Source: Escherichia coli (lineage in GTDB: Bacteria > Pseudomonadota > Gammaproteobacteria > Enterobacterales > Enterobacteriaceae). From it: a stretch of DNA of 64,000 bases. The notes beneath the pieces were generated by a model, which was not told where the DNA came from, made no database searches, and saw nothing but the letters and a program-made list of their open reading frames with translations. Position numbers and translations under genes: made by a program. The stretch lies in assembly GCF_050920415.1 (NCBI RefSeq), contig NZ_CP169309.1; one strand, 5' to 3'. Below, piece by piece: positions 9,261 to 57,860 of this stretch (the first letter of the stretch is position 1; every line of letters starts with the position of its first letter).

Positions 9261-10799
9261 ATGCAACAACCTGTAGTTCGCGTTGGCGAATGGCTTGTTA
9301 CTCCGTCCATAAACCAAATTAGTCGCAATGGGCGTCAACTTACCCTTGAGCCGAGATTAATCGATCTTCTGGTTTTCTTTGCTCAACACAGTGGCGAAGT
9401 ACTTAGCAGGGATGAACTTATCGATAATGTCTGGAAGAGAAGTATTGTCACCAATCACGTTGTGACGCAGAGTATCTCAGAACTACGTAAGTCATTAAAA
9501 GATAATGATGAAGATAGTCCTGTCTATATCGCTACTGTACCAAAGCGCGGCTATAAATTAATGGTGCCGGTTATCTGGTACAGCGAAGAAGAGGGAGAGG
9601 AAATAATGCTATCTTCGCCTCCCCCTATACCAGAGGCGGTTCCTGACACAGATTCTCCCTCCCAAAGTCTTAACATTCAAAGCACCGCAACACCACCTGA
9701 ACAATCCCCAGTTAAAAGCAAACGATTCACTACCTTTTGGGTATGGTTTTTTTTCCTGTTGTCGTTAGGTATCTGTGTAGCACTGGTAGCGTTTTCAAGT
9801 CTTGATACACGTCTTCCTATGAGCAAATCGCGTATTTTGCTCAATCCACGCGATATTGACATTAATATGGTAAATAAAAGTTGTAACAGCTGGAGTTCCC
9901 CGTATCAGCTCTCTTACGCGATAGGCGTGGGTGATTTGGTGGCGACATCACTTAACACCTTCTCCACCTTTATGGTGCATGACAAAATCAACTACAACAT
10001 TGATGAACCGAGCAGTTCCGGTAAAACATTATCTATTGCGTTTGTTAATCAGCGCCAATACCGTGCTCAACAATGCTTTATGTCGGTAAAATTGGTAGAC
10101 AATGCAGATGGTTCAACCATGCTGGATAAACGTTATGTCATCACTAACGGTAATCAGCTGGCGATTCAAAATGATTTACTGGAGAGTTTATCAAAAGCGT
10201 TAAACCAACCGTGGCCACAACGAATGCAGGAGATGCTCCAGCAAATTTTGCCGCATCGTGGTGCGTTATTAACTAATTTTTATCAGGCTCATGATTATTT
10301 ACTGCATGGCGATGATAAATCATTGAACCGTGCCAGTGAATTACTAGGTGAGATTGTTCAATCATCCCCCGAATTTACCTACGCGAGAGCAGAAAAAGCA
10401 TTAGTTGATATCGTGCGCCATTCTCAACATCCTTTAGATGAAAAACAATTAGCAGCACTGAATACAGAAATAGATAACATTGTTACACTGCCGGAATTGA
10501 ACAACCTGTCCATTATATATCAAATAAAAGCGGTCAGTGCTCTGGTAAAAGGTAAAACAGATGAGTCTTACCAGGCGATAAATACTGGCATTGATCTTGA
10601 AATGTCCTGGCTAAATTATGTGTTGCTTGGCAAGGTTTATGAAATGAAGGGGATGAACCGGGAAGCAGCTGATGCATATCTCACCGCCTTTAATTTACGC
10701 CCAGGGGCAAACACCCTTTACTGGATTGAAAATGGTATATTCCAGACTTCTGTTCCTTATGTTGTACCTTATCTCGACAAATTTCTCGCCTCAGAATAA
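9261..10799 (+). CDS. cadC: ToxR-like membrane-integrated pH-responsive activator CadC (512 aa)
   Basis: MQQPVVRVGEWLVTPSINQISRNGRQLTLEPRLIDLLVFF... winged-helix N-terminus, single TM segment, periplasmic sensor domain. Confidence 0.95.
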   Translation: MQQPVVRVGEWLVTPSINQISRNGRQLTLEPRLIDLLVFFAQHSGEVLSRDELIDNVWKRSIVTNHVVTQSISELRKSLKDNDEDSPVYIATVPKRGYKLMVPVIWYSEEEGEEIMLSSPPPIPEAVPDTDSPSQSLNIQSTATPPEQSPVKSKRFTTFWVWFFFLLSLGICVALVAFSSLDTRLPMSKSRILLNPRDIDINMVNKSCNSWSSPYQLSYAIGVGDLVATSLNTFSTFMVHDKINYNIDEPSSSGKTLSIAFVNQRQYRAQQCFMSVKLVDNADGSTMLDKRYVITNGNQLAIQNDLLESLSKALNQPWPQRMQEMLQQILPHRGALLTNFYQAHDYLLHGDDKSLNRASELLGEIVQSSPEFTYARAEKALVDIVRHSQHPLDEKQLAALNTEIDNIVTLPELNNLSIIYQIKAVSALVKGKTDESYQAINTGIDLEMSWLNYVLLGKVYEMKGMNREAADAYLTAFNLRPGANTLYWIENGIFQTSVPYVVPYLDKFLASE

Positions 10800-25638: not shown

Positions 25639-26289
25639 ATGACCCGCACACTCAAGCCGTTAATTCTTAACACCGGCGCACTGGCGCTAACGTTAATCCT
25701 GATTTATACCGGCATTTCGGCCAATGACAAACTCACCTGGCTGATGGAAGTGACACCGGTGATTATTGTCGTGCCGCTACTGCTTGCCACCGCTAAACGT
25801 TATCCGTTAACGCCGCTGCTCTATACGCTCATTTTCTTTCACGCCATCATCCTGATGGTCGGCGGGCAATACACCTACGCGAAAGTCCCCGTTGGTTTTG
25901 AGGTGCAGGAATGGCTGGGGTTGAGCCGTAATCCGTATGACAAGCTGGGGCATTTTTTCCAGGGGCTGGTGCCTGCACTGGTGGCGCGAGAAATTCTCGT
26001 TCGCGGGATGTACGTGCGCGGACGTAAAATGGTGGCGTTTCTGGTCTGCTGCGTGGCGCTGGCGATAAGCGCGATGTATGAATTAATCGAGTGGTGGGCA
26101 GCGCTGGCAATGGGTCAGGGAGCGGATGATTTTCTCGGTACCCAGGGCGACCAATGGGACACACAATCCGATATGTTCTGCGCGCTGCTTGGTGCATTAA
26201 CTACGGTGATATTCCTTGCTCGCTTTCATTGCCGCCAGCTACGGCGCTATGGCTTAATCACCAGAGCGCCGGAAGCGATTACCTCTTAA
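25639..26289 (+). CDS. yjdF: Inner-membrane protein YjdF (DUF2238-like)
   Basis: Multi-TM ORF in the conserved position next to fumB; stop TAA at 26287-26289 overlaps the melA stop. Confidence 0.7.
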   Translation: MTRTLKPLILNTGALALTLILIYTGISANDKLTWLMEVTPVIIVVPLLLATAKRYPLTPLLYTLIFFHAIILMVGGQYTYAKVPVGFEVQEWLGLSRNPYDKLGHFFQGLVPALVAREILVRGMYVRGRKMVAFLVCCVALAISAMYELIEWWAALAMGQGADDFLGTQGDQWDTQSDMFCALLGALTTVIFLARFHCRQLRRYGLITRAPEAITS

Positions 26290-27641
26290 CGGTGTAACCA
26301 GCCTGGCAGCCAGTCGCCGTGGGCGGCAATCAGGTCGTCAATAAGAGCATAGATTTCATCAATGCCCAGCACGGCAGCGGTATGTGGGTCCATCATCGCG
26401 GCATGGTAAACACGGTCGCGATTTTCTGTGAGAATGGCTTCCGTCAGCAGCGTCTGTACGTTGATATTGGTTTGCATCAGGGCGGCCAGATGCGAAGGTA
26501 GCGTACCGACTTTGGTCGGCTGAATGCCATTAGCATCAACTAAACAGGCCACTTCCACGCAACATCCTTGTGGCAGGTTATCAATCAAACCATCGTTACG
26601 GACGTTGCCATAAATCACACTCGGCTCGCCAGTCCAGATAGCGTTCATGATTGTGCTGGCATATTCCCGTGACGGTTTAATATCAATCCGGGAGGCGTTC
26701 TTATACTCCTCCAGCTCTTTATGCCAGTTTGCCAATTGTTCGACGCAGCGTTTCGGGTACTCATCCAGCGGCACTTTATAACGCTCAATCAAATCCTCAC
26801 GACCAGGCTTAATAAACCACGGTGTGTATTCAGCAAAATGTTCTGACGATTCCGTGACGAAGTAGCCCAGCTTTTTGAACATTTCATAACGCACAATATT
26901 CTGGCAGCGAGTATTGCCATGAATATTCGGCTTCGGTGCCTGCCCTGCGTCATACGCTGCCAGCAGTTCTGGGTAGAGATTCACGTAACTGCCGTCGGCG
27001 GTTTTGCGCTCCAGTTCCAGGTAAAACGCCATATGGTTGATACCCGCGCAACGGTAACGCAACGTAGCTGGGTCGATATTGAGATCACGCGCCAGCTCTT
27101 CCGCCGTTCCCTGCACCGAATGGCACAGCCCTACCTGTTTGATATGCGGATAGCGGGCATACATCGCCCAGGTATTCATCGCCATTGGGTTAACATAGTT
27201 GAGCATAGTGGCATCGGGGCAGACTTCCGTCATGTCCTCGCAAATTTGCCACAGGTGCGGAATGGTACGTAGCGCGCGCATAATACCGCCCGGCCCCAAC
27301 GTATCGGCAATGGTTTGTTCCAGACCGTGGCGCTTACAGACCTCAAAATCAGTCACCGTGCAAGGTTCATAACCGCCAATCTGAAATGCCACTACGACAA
27401 AATCGGCATCCTGTAAGGCTTCTTTCTGTTGGGTGTGGCAGGTGATTTTGCCACTGGCCCCCGCTGAATCCATCAGCTTGCGCACCACAATGTGCGACTC
27501 TTCCAGGCGGATGGGATCAATGTCCATCAGGGCAATATGCGCCGTTTTTAGCGCCTCGCGATGGAACACATCACCAAGAATATTTTTAACGAAAATCGTC
27601 GAACCAGCGCCGATAAATGTAATTTTAGGTGCAGACATCAT
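26286..27641 (-). CDS. melA: Alpha-galactosidase MelA (GH4 family, 451 aa)
   Basis: MMSAPKITFIGAGSTIFVKNILGDV... N-terminal Rossmann GAGS motif typical of NAD/Mn-dependent family 4 glycosidases; divergent from melR. Confidence 0.93.
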   Translation of the reverse strand: MMSAPKITFIGAGSTIFVKNILGDVFHREALKTAHIALMDIDPIRLEESHIVVRKLMDSAGASGKITCHTQQKEALQDADFVVVAFQIGGYEPCTVTDFEVCKRHGLEQTIADTLGPGGIMRALRTIPHLWQICEDMTEVCPDATMLNYVNPMAMNTWAMYARYPHIKQVGLCHSVQGTAEELARDLNIDPATLRYRCAGINHMAFYLELERKTADGSYVNLYPELLAAYDAGQAPKPNIHGNTRCQNIVRYEMFKKLGYFVTESSEHFAEYTPWFIKPGREDLIERYKVPLDEYPKRCVEQLANWHKELEEYKNASRIDIKPSREYASTIMNAIWTGEPSVIYGNVRNDGLIDNLPQGCCVEVACLVDANGIQPTKVGTLPSHLAALMQTNINVQTLLTEAILTENRDRVYHAAMMDPHTAAVLGIDEIYALIDDLIAAHGDWLPGWLHR

Positions 27642-44783: not shown

Positions 44784-45800
44784 ATGAACGCTAAGATAAT
44801 TGCCTCGCTGGCCTTCACCAGCATGTTCAGCCTCAGCACCCTGTTCAGCCCGGCGCACGCCGAAGAGCAGGAAAAGGCGCTGAATTTCGGCATTATTTCA
44901 ACGGAATCACAGCAAAACCTGAAACCGCAATGGACGCCTTTCCTGCAAGATATGGAGAAGAAACTGGGCGTAAAGGTCAACGCCTTCTTTGCTCCGGACT
45001 ACGCGGGCATTATCCAGGGGATGCGCTTCAACAAAGTGGATATCGCCTGGTACGGCAACCTGTCGGCGATGGAAGCGGTGGATCGCGCCAACGGTCAGGT
45101 CTTCGCCCAGACGGTCGCGGCGGATGGATCGCCGGGTTACTGGAGCGTGTTGATCGTCAACAAAGATAGCCCGATCAACAACCTGAACGATCTGCTGGCC
45201 AAGCGTAAAGATCTCACCTTCGGCAATGGCGATCCTAACTCCACCTCTGGCTTCCTCGTCCCCGGCTACTACGTCTTCGCCAAAAACAATATCTCCGCCA
45301 GCGACTTCAAGCGCACCGTCAACGCCGGGCATGAAACCAACGCCCTCGCCGTCGCCAACAAGCAGGTGGATGTCGCCACCAACAACACTGAAAACCTCGA
45401 CAAGCTGAAAACCTCCGCGCCGGAGAAGCTGAAAGAACTGAAGGTGATCTGGAAATCGCCGCTGATCCCAGGCGATCCGATCGTCTGGCGCAAAAATCTG
45501 TCCGAAACCACCAAAGACAAGATCTACGACTTCTTTATGAACTACGGCAAAACGCCGGAAGAGAAAGCGGTGCTGGAACGCCTGGGCTGGGCGCCGTTCC
45601 GCGCCTCCAGCGACCTGCAACTGGTGCCAATTCGCCAGCTCGCACTGTTTAAAGAGATGCAAAGCGTGAAGGACAACAAAGGGCTGAACGAACAGGACAA
45701 GCTCGCGAAAACCACCGAGATACAGGCGCAACTGGATGACCTGGATCGCCTGAACAACGCGTTAAGCGCGATGAGTTCGGTGAGTAAAGCGGTGCAGTAA
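44784..45800 (+). CDS. phnD: Phosphonate ABC transporter periplasmic binding protein PhnD
   Basis: Signal peptide plus substrate-binding-protein fold; between phnC and phnE. Confidence 0.93.
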   Translation: MNAKIIASLAFTSMFSLSTLFSPAHAEEQEKALNFGIISTESQQNLKPQWTPFLQDMEKKLGVKVNAFFAPDYAGIIQGMRFNKVDIAWYGNLSAMEAVDRANGQVFAQTVAADGSPGYWSVLIVNKDSPINNLNDLLAKRKDLTFGNGDPNSTSGFLVPGYYVFAKNNISASDFKRTVNAGHETNALAVANKQVDVATNNTENLDKLKTSAPEKLKELKVIWKSPLIPGDPIVWRKNLSETTKDKIYDFFMNYGKTPEEKAVLERLGWAPFRASSDLQLVPIRQLALFKEMQSVKDNKGLNEQDKLAKTTEIQAQLDDLDRLNNALSAMSSVSKAVQ

Positions 45801-45813
45801 TGTGCTCGATCGG

Positions 45814-45905
45814 TCCCCTCTCCCTTGAGGGAGAGGGTTAGGGTGAGGGGGGAAATACGCACGCTGATGCCCTCACCCCGGCCCTCTCCCACAGGGAGAG
45901 GGAGA
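45814..45905. repeat. Pair of inverted GC-rich palindromic intergenic elements (boxC-like) between phnD and phnE
   Basis: gtcccctctcccttgagggagagggttagggtgagggg and, in opposite orientation, gccctcaccccggccctctcccacagggagagggag. Confidence 0.7.
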
Positions 45906-45926
45906 AAACATTAAACGGAGCCAAAC

Positions 45927-46706
45927 ATGCAAACCATCACCATCGCCCCACCCAAGCGCAGCTGGTTCTCGCTTCTGAGCTGGGCCATTGTTCTCGCCGT
46001 GCTGGTCGTCTCGTGGCAGGGCGCGGAAATGGCCCCGCTCACGCTGATTAAAGACGGCGGCAACATGGCGACGTTCGCCGCCGACTTCTTCCCGCCCGAT
46101 TTCAGCCAGTGGCAGGATTACCTCACCGAAATGGCCGTCACGCTGCAAATCGCCGTCTGGGGCACTGCGCTGGCAGTCGTTCTCTCCATCCCCTTCGGCC
46201 TGATGAGCGCCGAAAACCTGGTGCCGTGGTGGGTTTACCAGCCCGTTCGCCGCCTGATGGACGCCTGCCGCGCCATTAACGAGATGGTCTTCGCCATGCT
46301 GTTCGTGGTCGCCGTCGGTCTCGGTCCGTTCGCTGGCGTACTGGCGCTGTTTATCCACACCACCGGCGTGCTCTCCAAACTGCTTTCCGAAGCGGTGGAA
46401 GCGATTGAACCCGGCCCGGTGGAAGGCATTCGCGCCACCGGTGCCAATAAGCTCGAAGAGATCCTCTACGGCGTGCTGCCGCAGGTCATGCCGCTACTGA
46501 TTTCCTACTCACTCTATCGTTTCGAATCCAACGTGCGTTCCGCCACCGTTGTTGGCATGGTCGGCGCTGGCGGAATTGGCGTCACGCTGTGGGAAGCGAT
46601 TCGCGGTTTCCAGTTCCAGCAAACCTGCGCCCTGATGGTGCTGATTATCGTCACGGTCAGCCTGCTGGATTTCCTCTCTCAACGGTTGCGTAAGCACTTT
46701 ATCTGA
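45927..46706 (+). CDS. phnE: Phosphonate ABC transporter permease PhnE, uninterrupted frame (259 aa)
   Basis: Single continuous ORF with ABC permease EAA-like loop; no frameshift within the window. Confidence 0.9.
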
Positions 46707-46726
46707 TAAGCGAGGCATTGATATCT

Positions 46727-47452
46727 ATGCACTTGTCTACACCTCCGACCAGCTACCCAACACGCTATCAGGAGATAGCCGCAAAACTTGAGCAGGAGCT
46801 TCGTCAACACTACCGCTGCGGCGACTATCTTCCCGCCGAGCAGCAACTGGCAGCGCGCTTTGAGGTGAATCGCCACACCCTGCGCCGTGCCATCGACCAA
46901 CTGGTGGAAAAAGGCTGGGTACAGCGCCGTCAGGGCATCGGCGTACTGGTGCTGATGCGCCCGTTCGATTACCCGCTCAACGCCCAGGCGCGTTTTAGCC
47001 AGAACCTGCTGGATCAGGGTAGCCATCCCACCAGCGAAAAACTGCTGTCCGTGCTGCGCCCGGCCTCCGGTCACGTCGCTGACGCGCTGGGGATAACCGA
47101 GGGCGAGAACGTTATCCACCTGCGCACCCTGCGCCGGGTCAACGGCGTCGCGCTCTGTTTAATCGACCACTACTTTGCGGACCTCACTCTCTGGCCGACG
47201 CTGCAACGCTTCGACAGCGGCTCGCTGCACGATTTTTTGCACGAGCAAACGGGAATTGCGCTGCGCCGCAGCCAGACGCGGATCAGCGCCCGCCGCGCCC
47301 AGGCCAAAGAGTGCCAGCGTCTTGAAATTCCGAATATGTCGCCGCTGCTGTGCGTGCGCACCCTTAACCACCGTGACGGTGAAAGCAGCCCGGCGGAGTA
47401 CTCCGTCAGCCTGACGCGCGCCGACATGATTGAATTCACCATGGAGCACTGA
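46727..47452 (+). CDS. phnF: GntR-family repressor PhnF
   Basis: N-terminal GntR HTH (YLPAEQQLAARFEVNRHTLRRAIDQL) plus UTRA-like domain; start at ATG 46727. Confidence 0.92.
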   Translation: MHLSTPPTSYPTRYQEIAAKLEQELRQHYRCGDYLPAEQQLAARFEVNRHTLRRAIDQLVEKGWVQRRQGIGVLVLMRPFDYPLNAQARFSQNLLDQGSHPTSEKLLSVLRPASGHVADALGITEGENVIHLRTLRRVNGVALCLIDHYFADLTLWPTLQRFDSGSLHDFLHEQTGIALRRSQTRISARRAQAKECQRLEIPNMSPLLCVRTLNHRDGESSPAEYSVSLTRADMIEFTMEH

Positions 47453-47905
47453 ATGCACGCAGATACCGCGACCCGCCAGCACTGGATGTCCGTGCTGGCG
47501 CACAGCCAACCGGCTGAACTGGCTAACCGCCTTAAAGCGCTAAACATCACCACCGACTATGACATTATCCGCGCCGCCGAAACCGGCCTGGTACAGATTC
47601 AGGCGCGAATGGGTGGCACCGGCGAACGCTTTTTTGCTGGCGACGCTACGCTCACCCGCGCCGCTGTACGCCTTACTGACGGCACGCTCGGCTACAGCTG
47701 GGTGCTGGGGCGCGACAAACAGCACGCCGAACGCTGCGCGCTGATTGACGCGCTGATGCAGCAATCTCGCCACTTTCAAAACTTATCAGAAACCCTTATT
47801 GCCCCGCTGGACGCTGACCGTATGGCACGCATTGCCGCACGCCAGGCCGAAGTGAACGCCAGTCGGGTCGACTTCTTTACGATGGTTCGCGGAGACAACG
47901 CATGA
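47453..47905 (+). CDS. phnG: C-P lyase core complex subunit PhnG
   Basis: Order and size in the phn operon; overlaps phnH start. Confidence 0.9.
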
Positions 47906-48486
47906 CCCTGGAAACCGCTTTTATGCTTCCCGTGCAGGATGCCCAGCACAGTTTTCGTCGCCTGTTAAAGGCAATGAGCGAGCCGGGCGTGATTGTCGCC
48001 CTGCATCAGCTCAAACGCGGCTGGCAGCCGCTGAATATCGCCACCACCAGCGTGCTGCTGACGCTGGCCGATAACGACACGCCGGTGTGGCTTTCCGCGC
48101 CATTAAGTAACGATATCGTCAGCCAGAGCCTGCGTTTTCATACCAACGCCCCGCTGGTCAATCAGCCGGAACAGGCGACCTTCGCAGTGACGGATGAGGC
48201 GATTGCCAGCGAGCAGCTCAACGCCCTTTCCACCGGCACCGCCGTTGCGCCGGAAGCCGGTGCGACGTTGATTTTACAGGTCACCAGCCTGAGCGGCGGA
48301 CGCATGCTGCGCCTCACCGGCGCGGGTATTGCCGAAGAACGGATGATCGCCCCGCAACTGCCGGAGTGCATTCTGCACGAACTCACCGAGCGCCCGCACC
48401 CGTTCCCGCTCGGCATCGACCTGATCCTGACCTGCGGCGAGCGCCTGCTGGCTATTCCGCGAACCACTCATGTGGAGGTGTGCTGA
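47902..48486 (+). CDS. phnH: C-P lyase core complex subunit PhnH
   Basis: Order and size in the phn operon; stop overlaps phnI ATG. Confidence 0.9.
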
Positions 48487-49550
48487 TGTACGTTGCCGTG
48501 AAAGGGGGCGAGAAGGCGATCGACGCCGCCCACGCCCTGCAAGAGAGCCGACGCCGGGTCGATACCGATTTGCCTGAACTGAGCGTCGCCCAGATTGAAC
48601 AGCAGCTTAATCTCGCGGTGGATCGCGTGATGACCGAAGGCGGCATTGCCGACCGCGAACTGGCCGCACTGGCGCTGAAACAGGCCAGTGGCGATAACGT
48701 TGAAGCAATTTTCCTGCTGCGCGCCTACCGCACGACGCTGGCAAAACTGGCGGTAAGCGAGCCGCTCGACACCACCGAGATGCGTCTCGAACGCCGTATC
48801 TCCGCCGTTTATAAAGACATTCCTGGCGGCCAGCTGCTTGGCCCGACCTACGACTACACCCATCGCCTGCTCGATTTCACCCTGCTGGCGAATGGCGAAG
48901 CGCCGACGCTGACCACCACCGACAGCGAGCAAGCCCCATCGCCGCACGTTTTCAGCCTGCTGGCGCGTCAGGGGCTGGCGAAGTTTGAAGAGGATAGCGG
49001 CGCACAGCCGGATGACATCACCCGTACACCGCCGGTTTACCCTTGCTCTCGCGCCTCCCGCCTGCAACAGCTCATGCGCGGCGACGAAGGCTACTTGCTG
49101 GCGCTGGCCTACTCCACCCAGCGTGGTTACGGACGCAATCACCCGTTCGCAGGCGAAATCCGCAGTGGCTATATCGACGTGTCTATTGTGCCGGAAGAGC
49201 TGGGATTTGCGGTGAACGTCGGTGAACTGCTGATGACCGAGTGTGAAATGGTTAACGGTTTTATCGACCAGCCGGATGAGCCGCCGCACTTCACGCGCGG
49301 CTACGGGCTGGTGTTTGGCATGAGCGAGCGCAAAGCGATGGCAATGGCGCTGGTTGACCGCGCTCTACAAGCCCCGGAGTACGGCGAGCACGCGACAGGC
49401 CCGGCGCAGGATGAAGAGTTCGTGCTGGCGCATGCCGACAACGTCGAAGCCGCAGGCTTTGTCTCGCACCTCAAACTCCCGCACTACGTCGATTTCCAGG
49501 CCGAGCTGGAGCTACTCAAACGTCTGCAACAGGAGCAGAACCATGGCTAA
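48486..49550 (+). CDS. phnI: C-P lyase subunit PhnI (ribosyl-triphosphate-forming nucleosidase, 354 aa)
   Basis: Start at ATG 48486 ([13 protein letters not shown]...) inside the longer ORF 48366-49550. Confidence 0.92.
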   Translation: MYVAVKGGEKAIDAAHALQESRRRVDTDLPELSVAQIEQQLNLAVDRVMTEGGIADRELAALALKQASGDNVEAIFLLRAYRTTLAKLAVSEPLDTTEMRLERRISAVYKDIPGGQLLGPTYDYTHRLLDFTLLANGEAPTLTTTDSEQAPSPHVFSLLARQGLAKFEEDSGAQPDDITRTPPVYPCSRASRLQQLMRGDEGYLLALAYSTQRGYGRNHPFAGEIRSGYIDVSIVPEELGFAVNVGELLMTECEMVNGFIDQPDEPPHFTRGYGLVFGMSERKAMAMALVDRALQAPEYGEHATGPAQDEEFVLAHADNVEAAGFVSHLKLPHYVDFQAELELLKRLQQEQNHG

Positions 49551-50388
49551 TCTGAGCGGCTACAACTTTGCGTACCTCGACGAGCAGACCAAACGTATGA
49601 TCCGCCGCGCCATCTTAAAAGCGGTGGCGATCCCCGGTTATCAGGTGCCGTTTGGCGGGCGCGAGATGCCGATGCCATACGGCTGGGGAACCGGCGGCAT
49701 ACAGCTTACCGCCAGTGTGATTGGCGAAAGCGACGTGTTGAAGGTGATTGACCAGGGCGCGGATGACACCACCAACGCCGTATCAATTCGCAACTTTTTC
49801 AAGCGCGTGACCGGGGTAAACACCACTGAACGTACGGATGATGCGACGCTTATCCAGACGCGCCACCGCATCCCCGAAACGCCGCTGACCGAAGATCAGA
49901 TCATTATCTTCCAGGTGCCGATCCCGGAACCGCTGCGCTTTATCGAGCCGCGCGAAACGGAGACCCGCACCATGCACGCGCTGGAGGAGTACGGCGTGAT
50001 GCAGGTGAAACTGTATGAAGATATCGCCCGCTTCGGTCATATCGCCACCACCTACGCCTATCCGGTGAAGGTGAACGGACGCTACGTCATGGACCCATCG
50101 CCGATCCCGAAATTTGATAACCCGAAAATGGACATGATGCCCGCCCTGCAACTGTTCGGCGCGGGGCGTGAGAAGCGTATTTATGCGGTGCCGCCGTTTA
50201 CCCGCGTGGAAAGCCTCGATTTCGACGATCATCCGTTCACCGTTCAGCAGTGGGATGAACCCTGCGCCATCTGCGGATCGACCCACAGCTATCTCGATGA
50301 AGTGGTGCTGGATGACGCCGGAAACCGCATGTTTGTCTGCTCCGATACCGATTATTGCCGCCAACAGAGCGAGGCGAGAAGCCAATGA
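49543..50388 (+). CDS. phnJ: C-P lyase catalytic subunit PhnJ (radical SAM-dependent, 281 aa)
   Basis: MANLSGYNFAYLDEQTKRMIRRAILKAVAIPGYQVPFGG... with C-terminal Cys cluster CAICGSTHSYLDEVVLDDAGNRMFVCSDTDYC. Confidence 0.93.
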   Translation: MANLSGYNFAYLDEQTKRMIRRAILKAVAIPGYQVPFGGREMPMPYGWGTGGIQLTASVIGESDVLKVIDQGADDTTNAVSIRNFFKRVTGVNTTERTDDATLIQTRHRIPETPLTEDQIIIFQVPIPEPLRFIEPRETETRTMHALEEYGVMQVKLYEDIARFGHIATTYAYPVKVNGRYVMDPSPIPKFDNPKMDMMPALQLFGAGREKRIYAVPPFTRVESLDFDDHPFTVQQWDEPCAICGSTHSYLDEVVLDDAGNRMFVCSDTDYCRQQSEARSQ

Positions 50389-51143
50389 ATCAACCGTTAC
50401 TTTCGGTCAATAACCTGACCCACCTTTACGCGCCGGGCAAAGGCTTCAGCGATGTCTCTTTTGATTTATGGCCGGGGGAAGTGCTGGGCATTGTCGGGGA
50501 ATCCGGTTCCGGGAAGACCACGCTGCTGAAATCAATCTCCGCCCGTCTGACACCGCAACAGGGGGAGATTCACTATGAAAACCGTTCCCTCTATGGCATG
50601 AGCGAGGCCGACCGCCGTCGCCTGCTGCGCACCGAATGGGGCGTGGTGCATCAGCATCCGCTCGACGGCCTGCGCCGTCAGGTGTCAGCAGGCGGCAATA
50701 TCGGCGAACGGCTGATGGCGACCGGGGCGCGTCATTACGGCGATATTCGCGCCACCGCGCAGAAGTGGCTGGAGGAGGTGGAGATTCCCTCCAACCGTAT
50801 CGACGACCTGCCGACCACTTTTTCCGGCGGTATGCAGCAGCGTTTGCAGATTGCCCGCAACCTGGTGACGCATCCGAAGCTGGTGTTTATGGATGAACCG
50901 ACCGGCGGGCTGGATGTATCGGTACAGGCGCGCCTGCTCGATCTGCTGCGCGGTCTGGTGGTGGAGCTGAATCTGGCGGTGGTGATTGTCACCCATGATT
51001 TAGGCGTCGCCCGCCTGCTGGCGGACCGTTTGCTGGTGATGAAGCAGGGGCAGGTGGTGGAGAGTGGGTTAACCGACCGCGTACTCGACGACCCGCATCA
51101 TCCGTATACCCAGTTGCTGGTGTCATCGGTTTTGCAGAATTGA
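50385..51143 (+). CDS. phnK: ABC-type ATPase-like C-P lyase accessory protein PhnK
   Basis: Walker A GESGSGKTT; start at ATG 50385. Confidence 0.92.
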   Translation: MNQPLLSVNNLTHLYAPGKGFSDVSFDLWPGEVLGIVGESGSGKTTLLKSISARLTPQQGEIHYENRSLYGMSEADRRRLLRTEWGVVHQHPLDGLRRQVSAGGNIGERLMATGARHYGDIRATAQKWLEEVEIPSNRIDDLPTTFSGGMQQRLQIARNLVTHPKLVFMDEPTGGLDVSVQARLLDLLRGLVVELNLAVVIVTHDLGVARLLADRLLVMKQGQVVESGLTDRVLDDPHHPYTQLLVSSVLQN

Positions 51144-51165
51144 GTTGCAACACTTTGCGCACTGA

Positions 51166-51275
51166 TCCCCTCACCCCGGCCCTCTCCCGGAGGGAGAGGG
51201 AGAAAACCGGCGCAATATTCAACACCGTGCACAAGCGGTCCCCTCGCCCCTTTGGGGAGAGGGTTAGGGTGAGGG
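51166..51275. repeat. Second pair of the same inverted GC-rich palindromic elements, between phnK and phnL
   Basis: tcccctcaccccggccctctcccggagggagagggag and gtcccctcgcccctttggggagagggttagggtgagggg; same family as 45814-45905. Confidence 0.7.
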
Positions 51276-51320
51276 GCAATGTGCGCACCGCTCCCAAACA
51301 TGCGAACCACGAGGCGAAAA

Positions 51321-52001
51321 ATGATTAACGTACAAAACGTCAGTAAAACCTTCATCCTGCACCAGCAAAACGGCGTGCGCCTGCCCGTCTTACAACGCGC
51401 CTCGCTCACCGTCAACGCGGGCGAATGCGTGGTGCTCCACGGTCACTCCGGCAGCGGCAAATCAACTCTGCTACGCTCGCTGTACGCCAACTATCTGCCC
51501 GACGAAGGGCAAATCCAGATCAAACACGGTGACGAATGGGTAGACCTGGTCACCGCGCCAACGCGCAAAGTGGTGGAAATCCGCAAAACCACTGTCGGCT
51601 GGGTAAGCCAGTTTCTGCGCGTCATCCCGCGTATTTCGGCACTGGAAGTGGTGATGCAGCCGCTGCTCGATACCGGCGTTTCGCGTGATGCCTGCGCCGC
51701 TAAAGCCGCGCGTCTGCTCACCCGCCTGAACGTGCCGGAACGTCTGTGGCACCTGGCGCCATCGACCTTCTCCGGCGGCGAACAGCAGCGCGTCAACATC
51801 GCGCGCGGCTTTATCATCGATTACCCCATTCTGCTGCTCGACGAACCTACTGCCTCGCTGGACGCCAAAAACAGCGCCGCGGTGGTGGAACTGATCCGCG
51901 AAGCTAAAACCCGCGGCGCAGCCATCGTCGGCATCTTCCACGACGAAGCCGTACGCAATGACGTCGCCGACCGCCTGCACCCAATGGGAGCCTCTGCATG
52001 A
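51321..52001 (+). CDS. phnL: ABC-type ATPase-like C-P lyase protein PhnL
   Basis: Walker [10 protein letters not shown]; start at ATG 51321 ([11 protein letters not shown]...). Confidence 0.92.
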
Positions 52002-53134
52002 TTATCAATAACGTCAAACTGGTGCTGGAAAACGAAGTGGTACACGGTTCGCTGGAGGTGCAGGACGGCGAAATTCGCGCCTTTGCCGAAAGCCAGAGCC
52101 GCCTGCCAGAAGCGATGGACGGCGAAGGTGGCTGGCTGCTGCCGGGACTGATTGAGCTGCATACCGATAATCTGGATAAATTCTTCACCCCGCGCCCGAA
52201 AGTGGACTGGCCCGCCCACTCGGCGATGAGCAGCCACGATGCGCTGATGGTGGCGAGCGGCATCACCACCGTGCTGGACGCCGTGGCGATTGGCGACGTG
52301 CGCGACGGCGGCGATCGGCTGGAGAATCTGGAAAAGATGATCAACGCCATCGAAGAGACGCAGAAACGCGGCGTCAACCGCGCCGAGCACCGCCTGCACC
52401 TGCGCTGCGAACTGCCGCATCACACTACGCTGCCGCTGTTTGAAAAACTGGTGCAGCGCGAGCCGGTCACGCTGGTGTCGCTAATGGACCACTCACCGGG
52501 CCAGCGCCAGTTCGCCAATCGCGAGAAGTATCGCGAATATTACCAGGGCAAATACTCGCTCACCGATGCGCAGATGCAGCAGTACGAAGAGGAACAACTG
52601 GCGCTTGCCGCACGCTGGTCGCAGCCGAATCGCGAAACCATCGCCGCAATGTGCCGCGCGCGACAAATTGCCCTCGCCAGCCACGATGACGCCACGCACG
52701 CGCACGTTGCCGAATCCCACCAGCTTGGCAGCGTAATCGCCGAATTTCCCACCACGTTCGAAGCGGCGGAAGCTTCGCGCAAGCATGGCATGAATGTATT
52801 GATGGGCGCGCCGAATATTGTGCGCGGCGGTTCGCACTCCGGCAACGTGGCGGCCAGTGAACTGGCACAGCTTGGTCTGCTGGATATCCTCTCTTCCGAC
52901 TACTACCCCGCCAGCCTGCTCGATGCGGCATTCCGCGTCGCCGATGACGAGAGCAACCGCTTTACGCTGCCGCAGGCGGTGAAGCTGGTGACTAAAAATC
53001 CGGCGCAGGCGCTTAATCTTCAGGATCGCGGGGTGATTGGCGAGGGCAAACGCGCCGACCTGGTGCTGGCGCATCGCAAGGGCAACCACATTCATATCGA
53101 TCACGTCTGGCGTCAGGGTAAAAGGGTGTTCTGA
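51998..53134 (+). CDS. phnM: Amidohydrolase-family ribosyl-triphosphate diphosphatase PhnM
   Basis: Metal-dependent amidohydrolase motifs; operon position. Confidence 0.92.
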
Positions 53135-53691
53135 TGACGGGAAAACTGATTTGGTTAATGGGGGCCTCTGGCTCCGGAAAAGACAGTCTGTTGACGGAAC
53201 TCCGCCAGCGGGAACAAACTCAGCTACTGGTAGCGCATCGCTACATCACGCGCGCCGCCAGCGCCGGAAGTGAAAACCATATCGCCCTGAGCGAGCAGGA
53301 GTTTTTTACCCGCGCGGGGCAGAACCTTCTGGCCTTAAGCTGGCACGCCAACGGCCTGTATTATGGCATCGGCGTCGAGATTGACCTCTGGCTGCACGCT
53401 GGATTTGACGTGGTGGTCAACGGCTCACGCGCCCATCTACCGCAGGCGCGGGCGCGCTATCAATCGGCGCTGCTGCCCGTTTGTTTACAGGTTTCGCCAG
53501 AGATCCTGCGCCAGCGCCTGGAAAACCGTGGTCGTGAAAATGCCAGTGAAATTAACGCCCGGCTGGCGCGCGCTGCCCGCTATACTCCTCAGGATTGTCT
53601 TACGCTCAATAATGACGGCAGCCTGCGCCAGTCGGTCGACAAGCTGCTGACGCTGATTGATCTGAAGGAGAAACACCATGCCTGCTTGTGA
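53134..53691 (+). CDS. phnN: Ribose 1,5-bisphosphate phosphokinase PhnN
   Basis: P-loop [10 protein letters not shown]; operon position. Confidence 0.92.
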
Positions 53692-54112
53692 GCTTCGCCC
53701 GGCTACGCAGTACGACACCGACGCAGTTTACGCGCTGATTTGTGAGCTAAAACAGGCGGAGTTTGACCACCACGCGTTTCGCGTGGGCTTTAACGCCAAT
53801 CTGCGCGACCCGAACATGCGCTACCATCTGGCGCTGCTGGATGGCGAAGTTGTCGGCATGATCGGCCTGCATTTGCAGTTTCATCTGCATCATGTCAACT
53901 GGATCGGCGAAATTCAGGAACTGGTGGTGATGCCGCAGGCGCGCGGTCTGAACGTCGGCAGTAAATTACTGGCATGGGCCGAAGAAGAAGCCCGCCAGGC
54001 CGGGGCCGAAATGACCGAGCTTTCCACCAACGTCAAGCGCCACGACGCGCACCGTTTCTATCTGCGCGAAGGCTACGAGCAGAGCCACTTCCGCTTCACC
54101 AAGGCGCTGTAA
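53678..54112 (+). CDS. phnO: GNAT aminoalkylphosphonate N-acetyltransferase PhnO
   Basis: GNAT motif ([26 protein letters not shown]); operon position. Confidence 0.92.
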
Positions 54113-54113
54113 C

Positions 54114-54872
54114 ATGAGCCTGACCCTCACACTTACTGGCACTGGCGGCGCACAGGGTGTTCCCGCATGGGGCTGTGAGTGCGCGGCCTGCGCCAGAGCG
54201 CGGCGCTCACCGCAGTATCGCCGCCAGCCATGCAGCGGCGTCGTGAAGTTTAACGACGCGATCACCCTGATCGACGCCGGGCTGCACGATCTCGCCGATC
54301 GCTGGTCGCCCGGATCGTTCCAGCAGTTTTTGCTGACGCACTACCATATGGATCACGTGCAGGGGCTGTTTCCGCTGCGCTGGGGCGTGGGCGATTCGAT
54401 CCCGGTCTACGGCCCGCCGGATGAACAGGGCTGCGACGATCTGTTTAAACATCCGGGCCTGCTTGATTTCAGCCACACGGTGGAGCCATTTGTGGTGTTT
54501 GATTTGCAGGGATTGCAGGTGACGCCGCTACCGCTTAACCATTCGAAACTCACTTTCGGCTATTTACTGGAAACGGCGCACAATCGGGTGGCGTGGCTGT
54601 CTGACACCGCGGGCCTGCCAGAAAACACGCTGAAATTTTTACTCAATAATCATCCGCAGGTGATGGTGATTGATTGCAGCCATCCGCCGCGCGAGGATGT
54701 GCCGCGTAATCACTGCGATTTAAACACCGTGCTGGCGCTGAATGAGATTATCCGTTCACCGCGCGTGATTCTGACGCACATCAGCCACCAGTTTGATGCG
54801 TGGCTGATGGAAAATACGCTGCCATCGGGGGTTGAGGCGGGGTTTGATGGGATGGAGATTGGGGTGGAGTGA
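54114..54872 (+). CDS. phnP: Metallo-beta-lactamase-fold phosphodiesterase PhnP
   Basis: HxHxDH motif ([10 protein letters not shown]); last gene of the operon. Confidence 0.92.
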
Positions 54873-54906
54873 TGGGTGAGGGGCGATGCCTGCTCTAGAC
54901 TCAACA

Positions 54907-55236
54907 TCACCGCCCATACTCATCTTCCATTCTCCGCTCTTCATCTTCTAGCTGCCGACGCTCCTGATCCAGCTGGCGCTGGCGATCGTCCAGCTGCTTG
55001 CGGCGATCTTCAAACTGGCGGCGGCGATCGTCATATTGTCTGCGCCGATCGTCGTTCACTTCACGCTGCCAGCCGTCGTCGCGCGAATCTTCATAGTCTC
55101 GCCCACGGTCAGGGTTATAAGCATCGTTAATCGCCTGCTGAATATTGCCAATGGTGTCGTCGATAATATCGGCCTGGGCCGGAACGGTGGACAGCGTGAG
55201 CAGGGTGAATAAAATAAATAGCGGAAAACGTTTCAT
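54907..55236 (-). CDS. yjdP: Secreted protein with highly charged D/R/Q/E-rich repetitive C-terminus (YjdP-like, 109 aa)
   Basis: Signal peptide MKRFPLFILFTLLTLSTVPAQA followed by repeats DDRRRQYDDRRRQFEDRRKQLDDRQRQLDQERRQLEDEERR. Confidence 0.7.
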   Translation of the reverse strand: MKRFPLFILFTLLTLSTVPAQADIIDDTIGNIQQAINDAYNPDRGRDYEDSRDDGWQREVNDDRRRQYDDRRRQFEDRRKQLDDRQRQLDQERRQLEDEERRMEDEYGR

Positions 55237-55304
55237 TAGCCAACCTCAAAAAGAAACTCTATCCACATTAGTCATTACTCATCCATGCAAGTAGTGGATG
55301 AATC

Positions 55305-55517
55305 TCAATTTTTCCGCTGCTCTATTGCCGTAATCGCCTCCACGCGTTGTTGATGACGACCGCCTTCGTACTGCGCGCCCAGCCACGCATCCACAATCAT
55401 TTTTGCCAGTTCGAGGCCAACCACTCGTGAACCAAAAGCCAGTGCAACTTCACTGGCGTAATGCGGATAATCAGTGCGCTCTGACGACCTGGTTTCTTTA
55501 TCAATCCCCTCACTCAT
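55305..55517 (-). pseudogene. rpiB: Decayed remnant of ribose-5-phosphate isomerase B / allose-6-phosphate isomerase (rpiB)
   Basis: 70-codon frame MSEGIDKETRSSERTDYPHYASEVALAFGSRVVGLELAKMIVDAWLGAQYEGGRHQQRVEAITAIEQRKN retains the RpiB/LacAB SxxRTDYP and C-terminal GGRHQQR segments but lacks the N-terminal MKIAxGxDHxG segment and the central GILICGTGxGxSIAANK active-site segment. Confidence 0.55.
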
Positions 55518-55874
55518 TGACTATGAATAAAAGGCTGGCACAGCAACGCAGAATCCTGCGGTGCCAGCGACATGACCGCCCATTGCTCCGGTACGTTTTT
55601 TAATAAGAAACACCGGTTGCATTGATTAATTGTGCTCAGTATTTGCCGAAGTACAATATATATAATAAATATATAAAACACCTCATATTATTTACAGAGA
55701 TAATGAATTCGCGTACTTTTCCCTCTTCAGCACAAATGCCTAATAAAATGGCTCGTTCCGCTCACACTTCCACTTATTAAAGTCGCAAATTCCCAATTAT
55801 GATAACGCCAGCTTTAAATGACGTATTTTGCATGGATTACATATTTACGACATAAATGATAAATGGAGATTTAT

Positions 55875-57860
55875 ATGAATAACTCTCGGTTATTCCGTTT
55901 GAGCAGGATTGTTATTGCGTTAACTGCCGCCAGCGGCATGATGGTAAATACCGCTCACGCAACAGATGAAGCGAAAGCCGCGACTCAATATACCCAGCAG
56001 GTTAATCAGCATTACGCAAAATCATTACCGTTTAGCGATCGTCAGGACTTTGACGATGCCCAGCGCGGATTTATCGCCCCGCTGCTGGATGAAGGTATTC
56101 TGCGCGATGCGAATGGCAAAGTTTACTACCGCGCGGATGATTACAAATTTGATATTAATGCCGCTGCGCCGGAAACCGTAAACCCCAGCCTGTGGCGTCA
56201 GTCGCAGATCAACGGCATTTCTGGCCTGTTCAAAGTCACCGATAAAATGTATCAGGTACGCGGCCAGGATATCTCTAACATTACATTCGTTGAGGGCGAG
56301 AAAGGCATTATTGTTATCGACCCACTGGTAACGCCGCCTGCCGCAAAAGCCGCACTTGACCTTTACTTCCAGCATCGTCCGCAAAAACCGATTGTTGCTG
56401 TGATTTACACCCACAGCCACGCCGACCATTATGGCGGTGTGAAAGGCATTATCTCTGAAGCGGATGTTAAATCTGGCAAAGTGCAAGTGATCGCTCCGGC
56501 AGGCTTTATGGACGAAGCCATCAGCGAAAACGTGCTGGCGGGTAACATCATGAGCCGCCGTGCGCTCTACTCTTACGGTCTGTTACTGCCGCATAACGCG
56601 CAAGGCAACGTGGGCAACGGCCTGGGCGTGACGCTGGCAACGGGCGACCCGAGCATTATTGCGCCAACCAAAACGATTGTCAGAACTGGCGAGAAGATGA
56701 TTATCGACGGCCTGGAATTTGACTTCCTGATGACTCCGGGTAGCGAAGCGCCAGCCGAAATGCACTTCTATATTCCGGCCCTGAAAGCCCTGTGTACCGC
56801 CGAAAACGCCACGCATACCCTGCACAACTTCTACACCCTGCGCGGCGCGAAAACCCGCGATACCAGCAAGTGGACAGAGTATCTGAACGAAACGCTGGAT
56901 ATGTGGGGTAACGACGCGGAAGTACTGTTTATGCCACACACCTGGCCGGTCTGGGGCAATAAGCATATCAATGATTATATTGGTAAATATCGCGATACTA
57001 TCAAATACATTCACGACCAGACCCTGCACCTGGCGAACCAGGGTTACACCATGAATGAAATTGGCGACATGATTAAGCTGCCACCTGCGCTTGCCAATAA
57101 CTGGGCCAGCCGCGGCTATTACGGTTCTGTCAGCCACAACGCCCGCGCGGTGTATAACTTCTATCTTGGCTATTACGACGGTAACCCGGCTAACCTGCAT
57201 CCGTATGGTCAGGTGGAGATGGGTAAACGTTACGTGCAAGCTCTGGGCGGTTCTGCCCGCGTTATTAACCTGGCGAAAGAAGCGAACAAGCAAGGTGATT
57301 ATCGCTGGTCGGCAGAACTGCTGAAACAGGTGATTGCCGCCAACCCGGGTGACCAGGTCGCGAAGAATCTGCAAGCGAATAACTTTGAACAGCTGGGCTA
57401 TCAGGCCGAGTCCGCCACCTGGCGCGGTTTCTACCTGACCGGCGCAAAAGAGCTGCGCGAAGGGGTGCATAAGTTCAGCCACGGCACCACCGGTTCTCCG
57501 GACACCATTCGCGGGATGTCGGTCGAAATGCTGTTCGACTTTATGGCCGTTCGCCTCGATAGCGCGAAAGCCGCAGGTAAGAATATCAGCCTGAACTTCA
57601 ATATGAGCAACGGCGATAACCTCAACCTGACGCTGAACGATAGCGTGCTTAACTACCGTAAAACGCTGCAACCTGAAGCCAACGCCTCTTTCTACATCAG
57701 CCGTGAAGATCTTCACGCCGTGCTGACCGGACAAGCCAAAATGGCGGATCTGGTAAAAGCGAAGAAAGCCAAAATTATTGGCAATGGCGCGAAACTGGAA
57801 GAAATTATTGCCTGTCTGGATAATTTCGATTTGTGGGTGAATATCGTAACCCCAAATTAA
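55875..57860 (+). CDS. yjcS: Alkyl/aryl-sulfatase of the metallo-beta-lactamase fold (YjcS, ~661 aa)
   Basis: Signal peptide, HxHxDH motif ([10 protein letters not shown]) and C-terminal SCP2-like domain; start at ATG 55875 within ORF 55863-57860. Confidence 0.85.

Follow-up and report, generated by a model that had tools for sequence, protein, structure and literature searches.

The 638-bp interval between yjdP and yjcS is very probably the scar of an old loss of rpiB-alsRBACEK. It would have arisen from an als+ ancestor via two deletions, leaving a non-functional remnant that drifts neutrally. Descent from an als+ ancestor follows from the retention of fragments of both rpiB and alsK. The scar allele is common, old and population-wide (approximately 29% of sequenced E. 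coli), and is not specific to this strain. It should be noted that the als presence/absence polymorphism has already been published and that RefSeq annotates the remnant; the finding, though real, is ordinary and known. The useful corrections given here are the exact junctions, the full linkage of the deletions, the 105-codon parent frame with its private nonsense mutation, and the identity of the AT-rich tract.

Gene order and the two deletions

The analysed stretch of E. coli DNA, hereafter the window, is 64 kb long. It carries phnM-phnN-phnO-phnP on the plus strand, yjdP on the minus strand, the 638-bp interval and yjcS on the plus strand, followed by ytcA and mdtNOP. In K-12-type genomes rpiB, alsR, alsB, alsA, alsC, alsE and alsK sit between yjdP and yjcS. 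A tblastn search using all the Als proteins of K-12 found none of them in the 64 kb, only generic ABC-ATPase paralogues (phn operon). The transporter, epimerase, kinase and regulator genes of the D-allose locus are all missing from the window by this search, as the preliminary description had stated for the yjdP-yjcS interval. For the genome outside the window, absence of als is taken from the population counts below and from the near-identical record NZ_CP169399.1.

This record is the nearest public genome. It is 100% identical to the window over 54873-55900 and has the same scar arrangement in place of an intact rpiB and als genes; PGAP labels the remnant a pseudogene with an 'internal stop'. 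An IS2 element lies between dcuR and dcuB in NZ_CP169399.1 (L077 20664-21892) and is lacking from the dcuR-dcuB spacer of the window at approximately 21.9 kb. Upstream of this point, the window coordinates are offset by 1336 bp from those of NZ_CP169399.1. Because of the IS2 difference, we consider the window a close relative of NZ_CP169399.1 and not that record itself. Only 15 records were at least 99% identical to the window in the junction region, and only 2 in the mel region.

The features of the interval and its flanks are as follows.

54907-55236, minus strand: yjdP, which forms the left flank of the variable slot and encodes a DDRRRQL repeat protein (open reading frame, and PGAP annotation of the identical record)
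55305-55442, minus strand: 3' piece of the rpiB remnant; codons for RpiB residues 107-149 and the stop (blastn and protein alignment)
55305-55517, minus strand: 70-codon frame, reading MSEGIDKETRSSERTDYPHYASEVALAFGSRVVGLELAKMIVDAWLGAQYEGGRHQQRVEAITAIEQRKN
55305-55622, minus strand: chimeric frame of 105 codons, named 'RpiB/LacA/LacB family sugar-phosphate isomerase' in RefSeq
55437-55442: junction 1, a single AGCCAG copy left (base-level comparison with 10547-10587 and 10706-10746 of the K-12-type locus L002)
55443-55512, minus strand: 5' piece of the rpiB remnant; codons for RpiB residues ~29-53
55512/55513: junction 2, rpiB at about codon 28 fused to the last 4-5 or so codons of alsK
55513-55572, plus strand: alsK end; last ~4 codons, stop codon TGA at 55524-55526, hairpin at 55535-55567
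55573-55650: 78-nt segment specific to the remnant haplotype; the chimeric frame takes its ATG (55620-55622) and its first ~17 codons from here
55651-55874, plus strand: upstream (regulatory) region of yjcS, conserved in all slot alleles and making up most of the AT-rich tract
55875-57860, plus strand: yjcS, encoding an alkyl sulfatase; right flank of the slot

The start of yjcS at 55875 follows PGAP and gives the distance of 638 bp to yjdP; the longest open reading frame begins at 55863. The YjcS of the window is 98.8% identical to that of K-12 (tblastn).

The blocks were mapped by blastn and alignments against L002, and the loci of E. whittamii (L017) and a divergent Escherichia (L018) were used in addition. 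The counterparts in L002 are listed below.

54874-55442: L002 10001-10569, 96.7% identity; yjdP, spacer and rpiB 3' piece
55433-55512: L002 10719-10798, 88.75% identity; rpiB 5' piece
55523-55572: L002 17358-17407, 78% identity; begins at the alsK stop codon and includes the downstream hairpin
55573-55650: no counterpart in L002; the 78-nt segment
55651 onward: L002 17409 onward, 93% identity; yjcS upstream region and yjcS

This alignment set the endpoints of both deletions. Intact K-12 rpiB contains AGCCAG twice, 159 bp apart, and the window keeps one copy. The deletion inside rpiB is 159 bp long and in frame, and takes out RpiB residues 54-106. The large deletion is ~6.55 kb (about 6549 bp) compared to K-12; it starts at about codon 28 of rpiB and spares only the last ~5 codons of alsK. 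Microhomology at its ends is at most 3 bp, CCT. With the closer alsK ends of L017 and L018, homology begins at 55507-55513, which places junction 2 at 55512/55513 with no filler. The ~9 nt at 55513-55522 were considered as filler DNA and rejected, since the alsK ends of L017 and L018 align there; these are the diverged last codons of alsK. No IS sequence was found at the junctions in the window. The junctions look like products of short-homology illegitimate recombination.

Homology to the intact locus is collinear on both sides of each junction, as in a pseudogene. Missing compared to K-12 are alsR, alsB, alsA, alsC, alsE, nearly all of alsK, the rpiB-alsR control region, and codons 1 to ~28 and 54-106 of rpiB. 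Junction 1 also makes a 7-bp hairpin (GCCAGTG...CACTGGC) beside TTTTGG at 55438-55457 on the minus strand, which is terminator-like and lies within the remnant frame. The count of terminator-like hairpins across junction 1 is not significant (1 site versus 0.6 expected from shuffles).

Based on these observations, we suggest that the scar allele arose once from an als+ ancestor. Illegitimate recombination between the two AGCCAG copies would have produced the 159-bp in-frame deletion in rpiB. Another such event, with microhomology of 3 bp at most, would account for the ~6.55-kb loss and the joining of rpiB at about codon 28 to the alsK end. The leftover, lacking promoter and catalytic residues, would then drift neutrally, and acquired a further nonsense mutation in the lineage of this strain. 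One point stands against this scheme: none of the als+ alleles seen could give rise to the 78-nt segment (55573-55650) by simple deletion.

Some other observations were made in the window. Over 10 kb, the phn operon (44874-55000) differs by 4-6% from that of K-12, seemingly a high value for E. coli, and the strain may come from a lineage with few sequenced genomes. The phnE gene is intact in the window and frameshifted in K-12. The phnP-yjdP spacer (54873-54906) is 34 nt long in the window versus 146 nt in K-12. Between phnK and phnL (~51143-51279), the spacer of the window is the longer one; these length differences are probably due to gain or loss of REP-type intergenic repeats. The melibiose permease gene melB is absent (25639-27641): yjdF (25639-26289, plus strand) abuts melA (26286-27641, minus strand). 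Of 5426 complete E. coli genomes, 1264 share this yjdF-melA junction, which thus represents another common presence/absence polymorphism in sugar utilisation.

The rpiB remnant and the neighbouring segments

The 70-codon frame had been described as an RpiB remnant without catalytic region and N-terminus, and this is borne out. Its sequence agrees exactly with the one quoted there. BLASTP against K-12 RpiB (E=6e-36) aligns it in two parts, residues 29-53 and residues 107-149, separated by one gap of 53 residues. In Pfam, it matches positions 102-138 of the LacAB_rpiB model (PF02502; E=6e-9) and, weakly, positions 25-50 (E=0.13). The full domain has about 138 positions and is incomplete in the remnant, as RpiB residues 1-28 and 54-106 are gone.

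Both catalytic Cys66, in the GILICGTG motif, and His99 lie within the 53 deleted codons, and neither is kept in the remnant. In RpiB, Cys66 is the catalytic base, and the H99N substitution cuts kcat 26-fold (PMC4783025). Deletion of Cys66 and His99 together with loss of the N-terminal strand excludes isomerase activity. Lacking the RpiB N-terminus, Cys66 and His99, the remnant is, judged from its sequence, a non-functional gene fragment. The rpiB promoter region is also deleted in the scar allele.

The 70-codon frame was taken in the preliminary description as the form of the remnant itself, which does not hold. Most carriers have an open frame of 105 codons. It was open and annotated by PGAP in 11 of 12 sampled carriers (WP_001183282/83/84/87). 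Its start and first ~35 codons come from formerly non-coding DNA, namely the antisense of the alsK-downstream hairpin and the 78-nt segment, and the remainder is the double-deleted rpiB. In the window and NZ_CP169399.1, codon 34 of this frame (55521-55523) is TAG instead of TGG, through a substitution at 55522, and both carry R104K. The nonsense codon accounts for the 70-codon frame at 55305-55517 and for the PGAP pseudogene call. The N-terminal 35 residues were also considered as a diverged RpiB N-terminus. This was rejected, as the DNA is collinear with that downstream of alsK and Pfam finds nothing before residue 37.

Identity to K-12 varies along the remnant. The spacer and rpiB 3' piece (55237-55442) are 98.5% identical to K-12 (L002 10364-10569, blastn), and the 5' piece is 93% identical to the L018 allele. 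By stretch, divergence from K-12 is 2% (55000-55442), 11% (55443-55512) and, for the phn operon, 4-6%. The inner pieces are 11% and 22% diverged, versus 1.5% for the adjoining 55237-55442, though on small counts, with 8-9 mismatches in 70-80 nt for the rpiB 5' piece. Intact rpiB differs between K-12 and E. whittamii by 22 nucleotides and no amino acids. A source of the inner piece in another species was considered on account of the 11-22% divergence and found no support, as the phn flank has already diverged by 4-6% and there are few mismatches in the inner piece. Neutral decay, together with no overwriting by recombination from als+ donors, would be sufficient to explain the divergence of the inner pieces.

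The alsK end at 55513-55572 is 74-78% identical to als+ alleles (blastn to L002 17358-17407, L017 9714-9779 and L018 9214-9283). The alsK-downstream hairpin at 55535-55567 is kept in the scar allele. Its closing pair is T...A in K-12 and C...G here, and this change on both sides of the hairpin looks compensatory. The minus strand has a T-rich run after the hairpin, giving the layout of a putative terminator.

The 78-nt segment is found in every sampled remnant allele with 97.7-100% identity. It is absent from the approximately 3400 als+ E. coli genomes, the O157-type alleles, the outgroups and all else that was fetched, and has no Rfam match. A source was sought in the O157-type island, empty-site species, cryptic-clade loci and other E. 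coli genomes, with no match. The segment either stems from a lost parental als+ allele or is DNA inserted during the rearrangement.

The AT-rich tract at 55621-55862 had been proposed to be the deletion scar or the yjcS promoter. It is not the scar: the junction is at 55512/55513, and from 55651-55657 on the DNA is 86-93% identical to the regions upstream of yjcS in K-12, O157:H7, E. whittamii and cryptic-clade loci. As the tract is common to als+, O157-type and other Escherichia alleles, it is yjcS upstream DNA. The promoter proposal stands in so far as 55651-55874 is the upstream region of yjcS. A simple scan of 55200-55900 gave no sigma-70-like site, and a yjcS promoter within the tract is therefore only presumed. 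An Rfam and promoter/terminator scan of 55100-56000 likewise gave no RNA family and no sigma-70-like site.

Distribution in E. coli and alternative explanations

We searched 5426 complete E. coli genomes. The 1-kb junction region was found in one piece in 1569 of these, with 96.5-100% identity, and a 218-bp stretch across junction 2 and the 78-nt segment in 1570 (96.8-100% identity), essentially at one place per genome. The als genes were present in 3404 genomes, and so was the 159-bp segment of rpiB. Alleles with only one of the deletions were not found among the 5426 genomes. The equal counts of the 159-bp segment and als show that the deletions are fully linked, without intermediates, and the order of the two deletions is therefore not inferable. 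The proposal of decay after loss of the operon thus stands as regards loss by deletion and falls as regards the order of events. From the counts and the single place per genome it follows that the scar and the intact allele exclude one another, and that als has not been relocated in carriers. The other approximately 450 genomes have an unrelated sugar island (O157:H7 and others) or larger deletions. The scar haplotype itself comprises two sub-haplotypes, ~2-3% of sites apart, in strains of differing serotypes and sources.

A collapse of the locus through faulty assembly or sequencing is practically out of the question. The identical junctions recur in about 1570 independent complete genomes, which refutes it and agrees with the earlier view that sequencing error is not involved. 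We also considered that the short arrangement is an ancestral empty site, with rpiB-als inserted in K-12-type lineages and nothing deleted here. Emptiness is possible at the family level: in Salmonella enterica arizonae phnP adjoins yjcS with nothing from rpiB/als between, and phnP-yjdP of Kluyvera georgiana and yjdP of Kluyvera genomosp. 3 adjoin yjcS, again with rpiB/als absent between. In the window, however, two fragments of rpiB and, with its hairpin, the 3' end of alsK are kept in parental order and orientation, which only an rpiB-als+ ancestor can explain. Moreover, E. whittamii and another divergent Escherichia have the order yjdP-rpiB-alsRBACEK-yjcS, and from these gene orders the als+ state is judged ancestral within Escherichia. 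An ancestral empty site is hence highly improbable; the rpiB and alsK fragments refute it for the window allele, and it could apply only to earlier stages in the history of the slot. The scar haplotype could also have been acquired as a whole, through homologous recombination with another E. coli lineage; this would refine the deletion explanation and not replace it. The two sub-haplotypes, spread across serotypes and sources, and the sharp steps in divergence from K-12 (2%, 11%, 4-6%) favor such a gain, but the short inner piece has few mismatches, and we regard it as possible though somewhat doubtful.

The 105-codon chimeric frame could alternatively encode a functional small protein under selection, the copy in the window being a recent loss of function. 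Such a protein would agree with the open frame in 11 of the 12 sampled carriers, the RefSeq annotation and a pN/pS of 0.5. The 12 alleles (318 nt) have 13 polymorphic sites, of which 8 are nonsynonymous, including one nonsense, and 5 synonymous. With this low power, the pN/pS is indistinguishable from 1 (P=0.17 versus neutrality). The density of polymorphic sites in the frame is similar to that of adjoining non-coding DNA (4.1% versus 6.7%, P=0.19, 12 alleles). As 70 of the 105 codons are an inherited open frame and the additional 35 would stay open by chance with a probability of 0.19, the open frame needs no selective explanation. The loss of Cys66, His99, the N-terminal strand and the rpiB promoter region, the lack of a sigma-70-like site in 55200-55900, the terminator-like hairpins within the frame and the nonsense allele in the window and its twin also speak against function. 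We consider selection for such a protein very unlikely. The polymorphism is compatible with neutral drift, and weak selection is possible in a sample of 12 alleles. The best reading of the 105-codon frame appears to be that of a drifting dead remnant. That the frame gives rise to an expressed new small protein, kept open in most of the ~1570 carriers, or that the three slot contents are an old balanced polymorphism across Escherichia, is likewise very unlikely.

Implications and comparison with known systems

The scar predicts a strain without D-allose use and without the backup isomerase RpiB, and hence dependent on RpiA. In brief, the cell would be unable to take up and catabolise D-allose, and its ribose-5-phosphate isomerase activity would come from RpiA alone. 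AlsE is missing as well, a loss of relevance to how gut E. coli metabolise D-allulose. Junctions 55437-55442 and 55512/55513 are a handy typing marker for the als-negative haplotype, and the 105-aa 'RpiB/LacA/LacB family isomerase' entries in RefSeq are annotations of a dead remnant. Beyond the description of the strain, the finding has little importance.

The yjdP-yjcS interval is a multi-allelic accessory slot in Enterobacteriaceae, which contains rpiB-als, a D-lyxose-type island or a scar, or is empty. Escherichia sp. E1V33 and a Citrobacter have a lyxose-type island in the slot. In a Pluralibacter MAG (L036 900-1400), rpiB beside yjdP is cut at codon 64 by an IS1-like element, followed by a lyxose-type island; this truncation is an independent decay at the same slot in another genus. 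In Escherichia sp. MOD1-EC7003 (L016 6317-10000), proP lies ~2 kb from yjcS, and phnP, yjdP and als were not detected upstream of yjcS. E. coli MSB1_9D (L005 8000-9034) has lost phn through als in another independent event, associated with the IS903B that lies between yjdN and yjcS, whereas the junctions in the window are without IS. The larger deletions in L016 and L005 have the same right-hand boundary upstream of yjcS.

The island of O157:H7 type occupies the same interval, and its right boundary is likewise at about 55655 of the window. It encodes a hybrid histidine kinase, a sugar ABC transporter, a D-lyxose/D-mannose isomerase, an aldolase, a kinase and a response regulator. Its gene content is unrelated, and there is no trace of the island in the window.

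The D-allose regulon of K-12 was described by Kim et al. 1997 and Poulsen et al. 1999, here as cited in PMC3032704 and PMC12216980. The rpiB-alsRBACEK locus of K-12 occupies the same slot. Of this locus, the window still has the region of the alsK stop with the hairpin downstream and, from rpiB, codons ~29-53 and 107-149. The alsE gene is present in 45% of 1324 genomes (PMC12216980). E. coli W, in which alsBACEK is missing, fails to grow on allose (PMC3032704). Our comparison of the scar uses the sequences of als-negative carriers other than strain W. These carriers, with the proteins WP_001183282/83/84/87, have the same two junctions and the same 78-nt segment as the window. The window and its twin NZ_CP169399.1 differ from them by the nonsense codon 34 and R104K.
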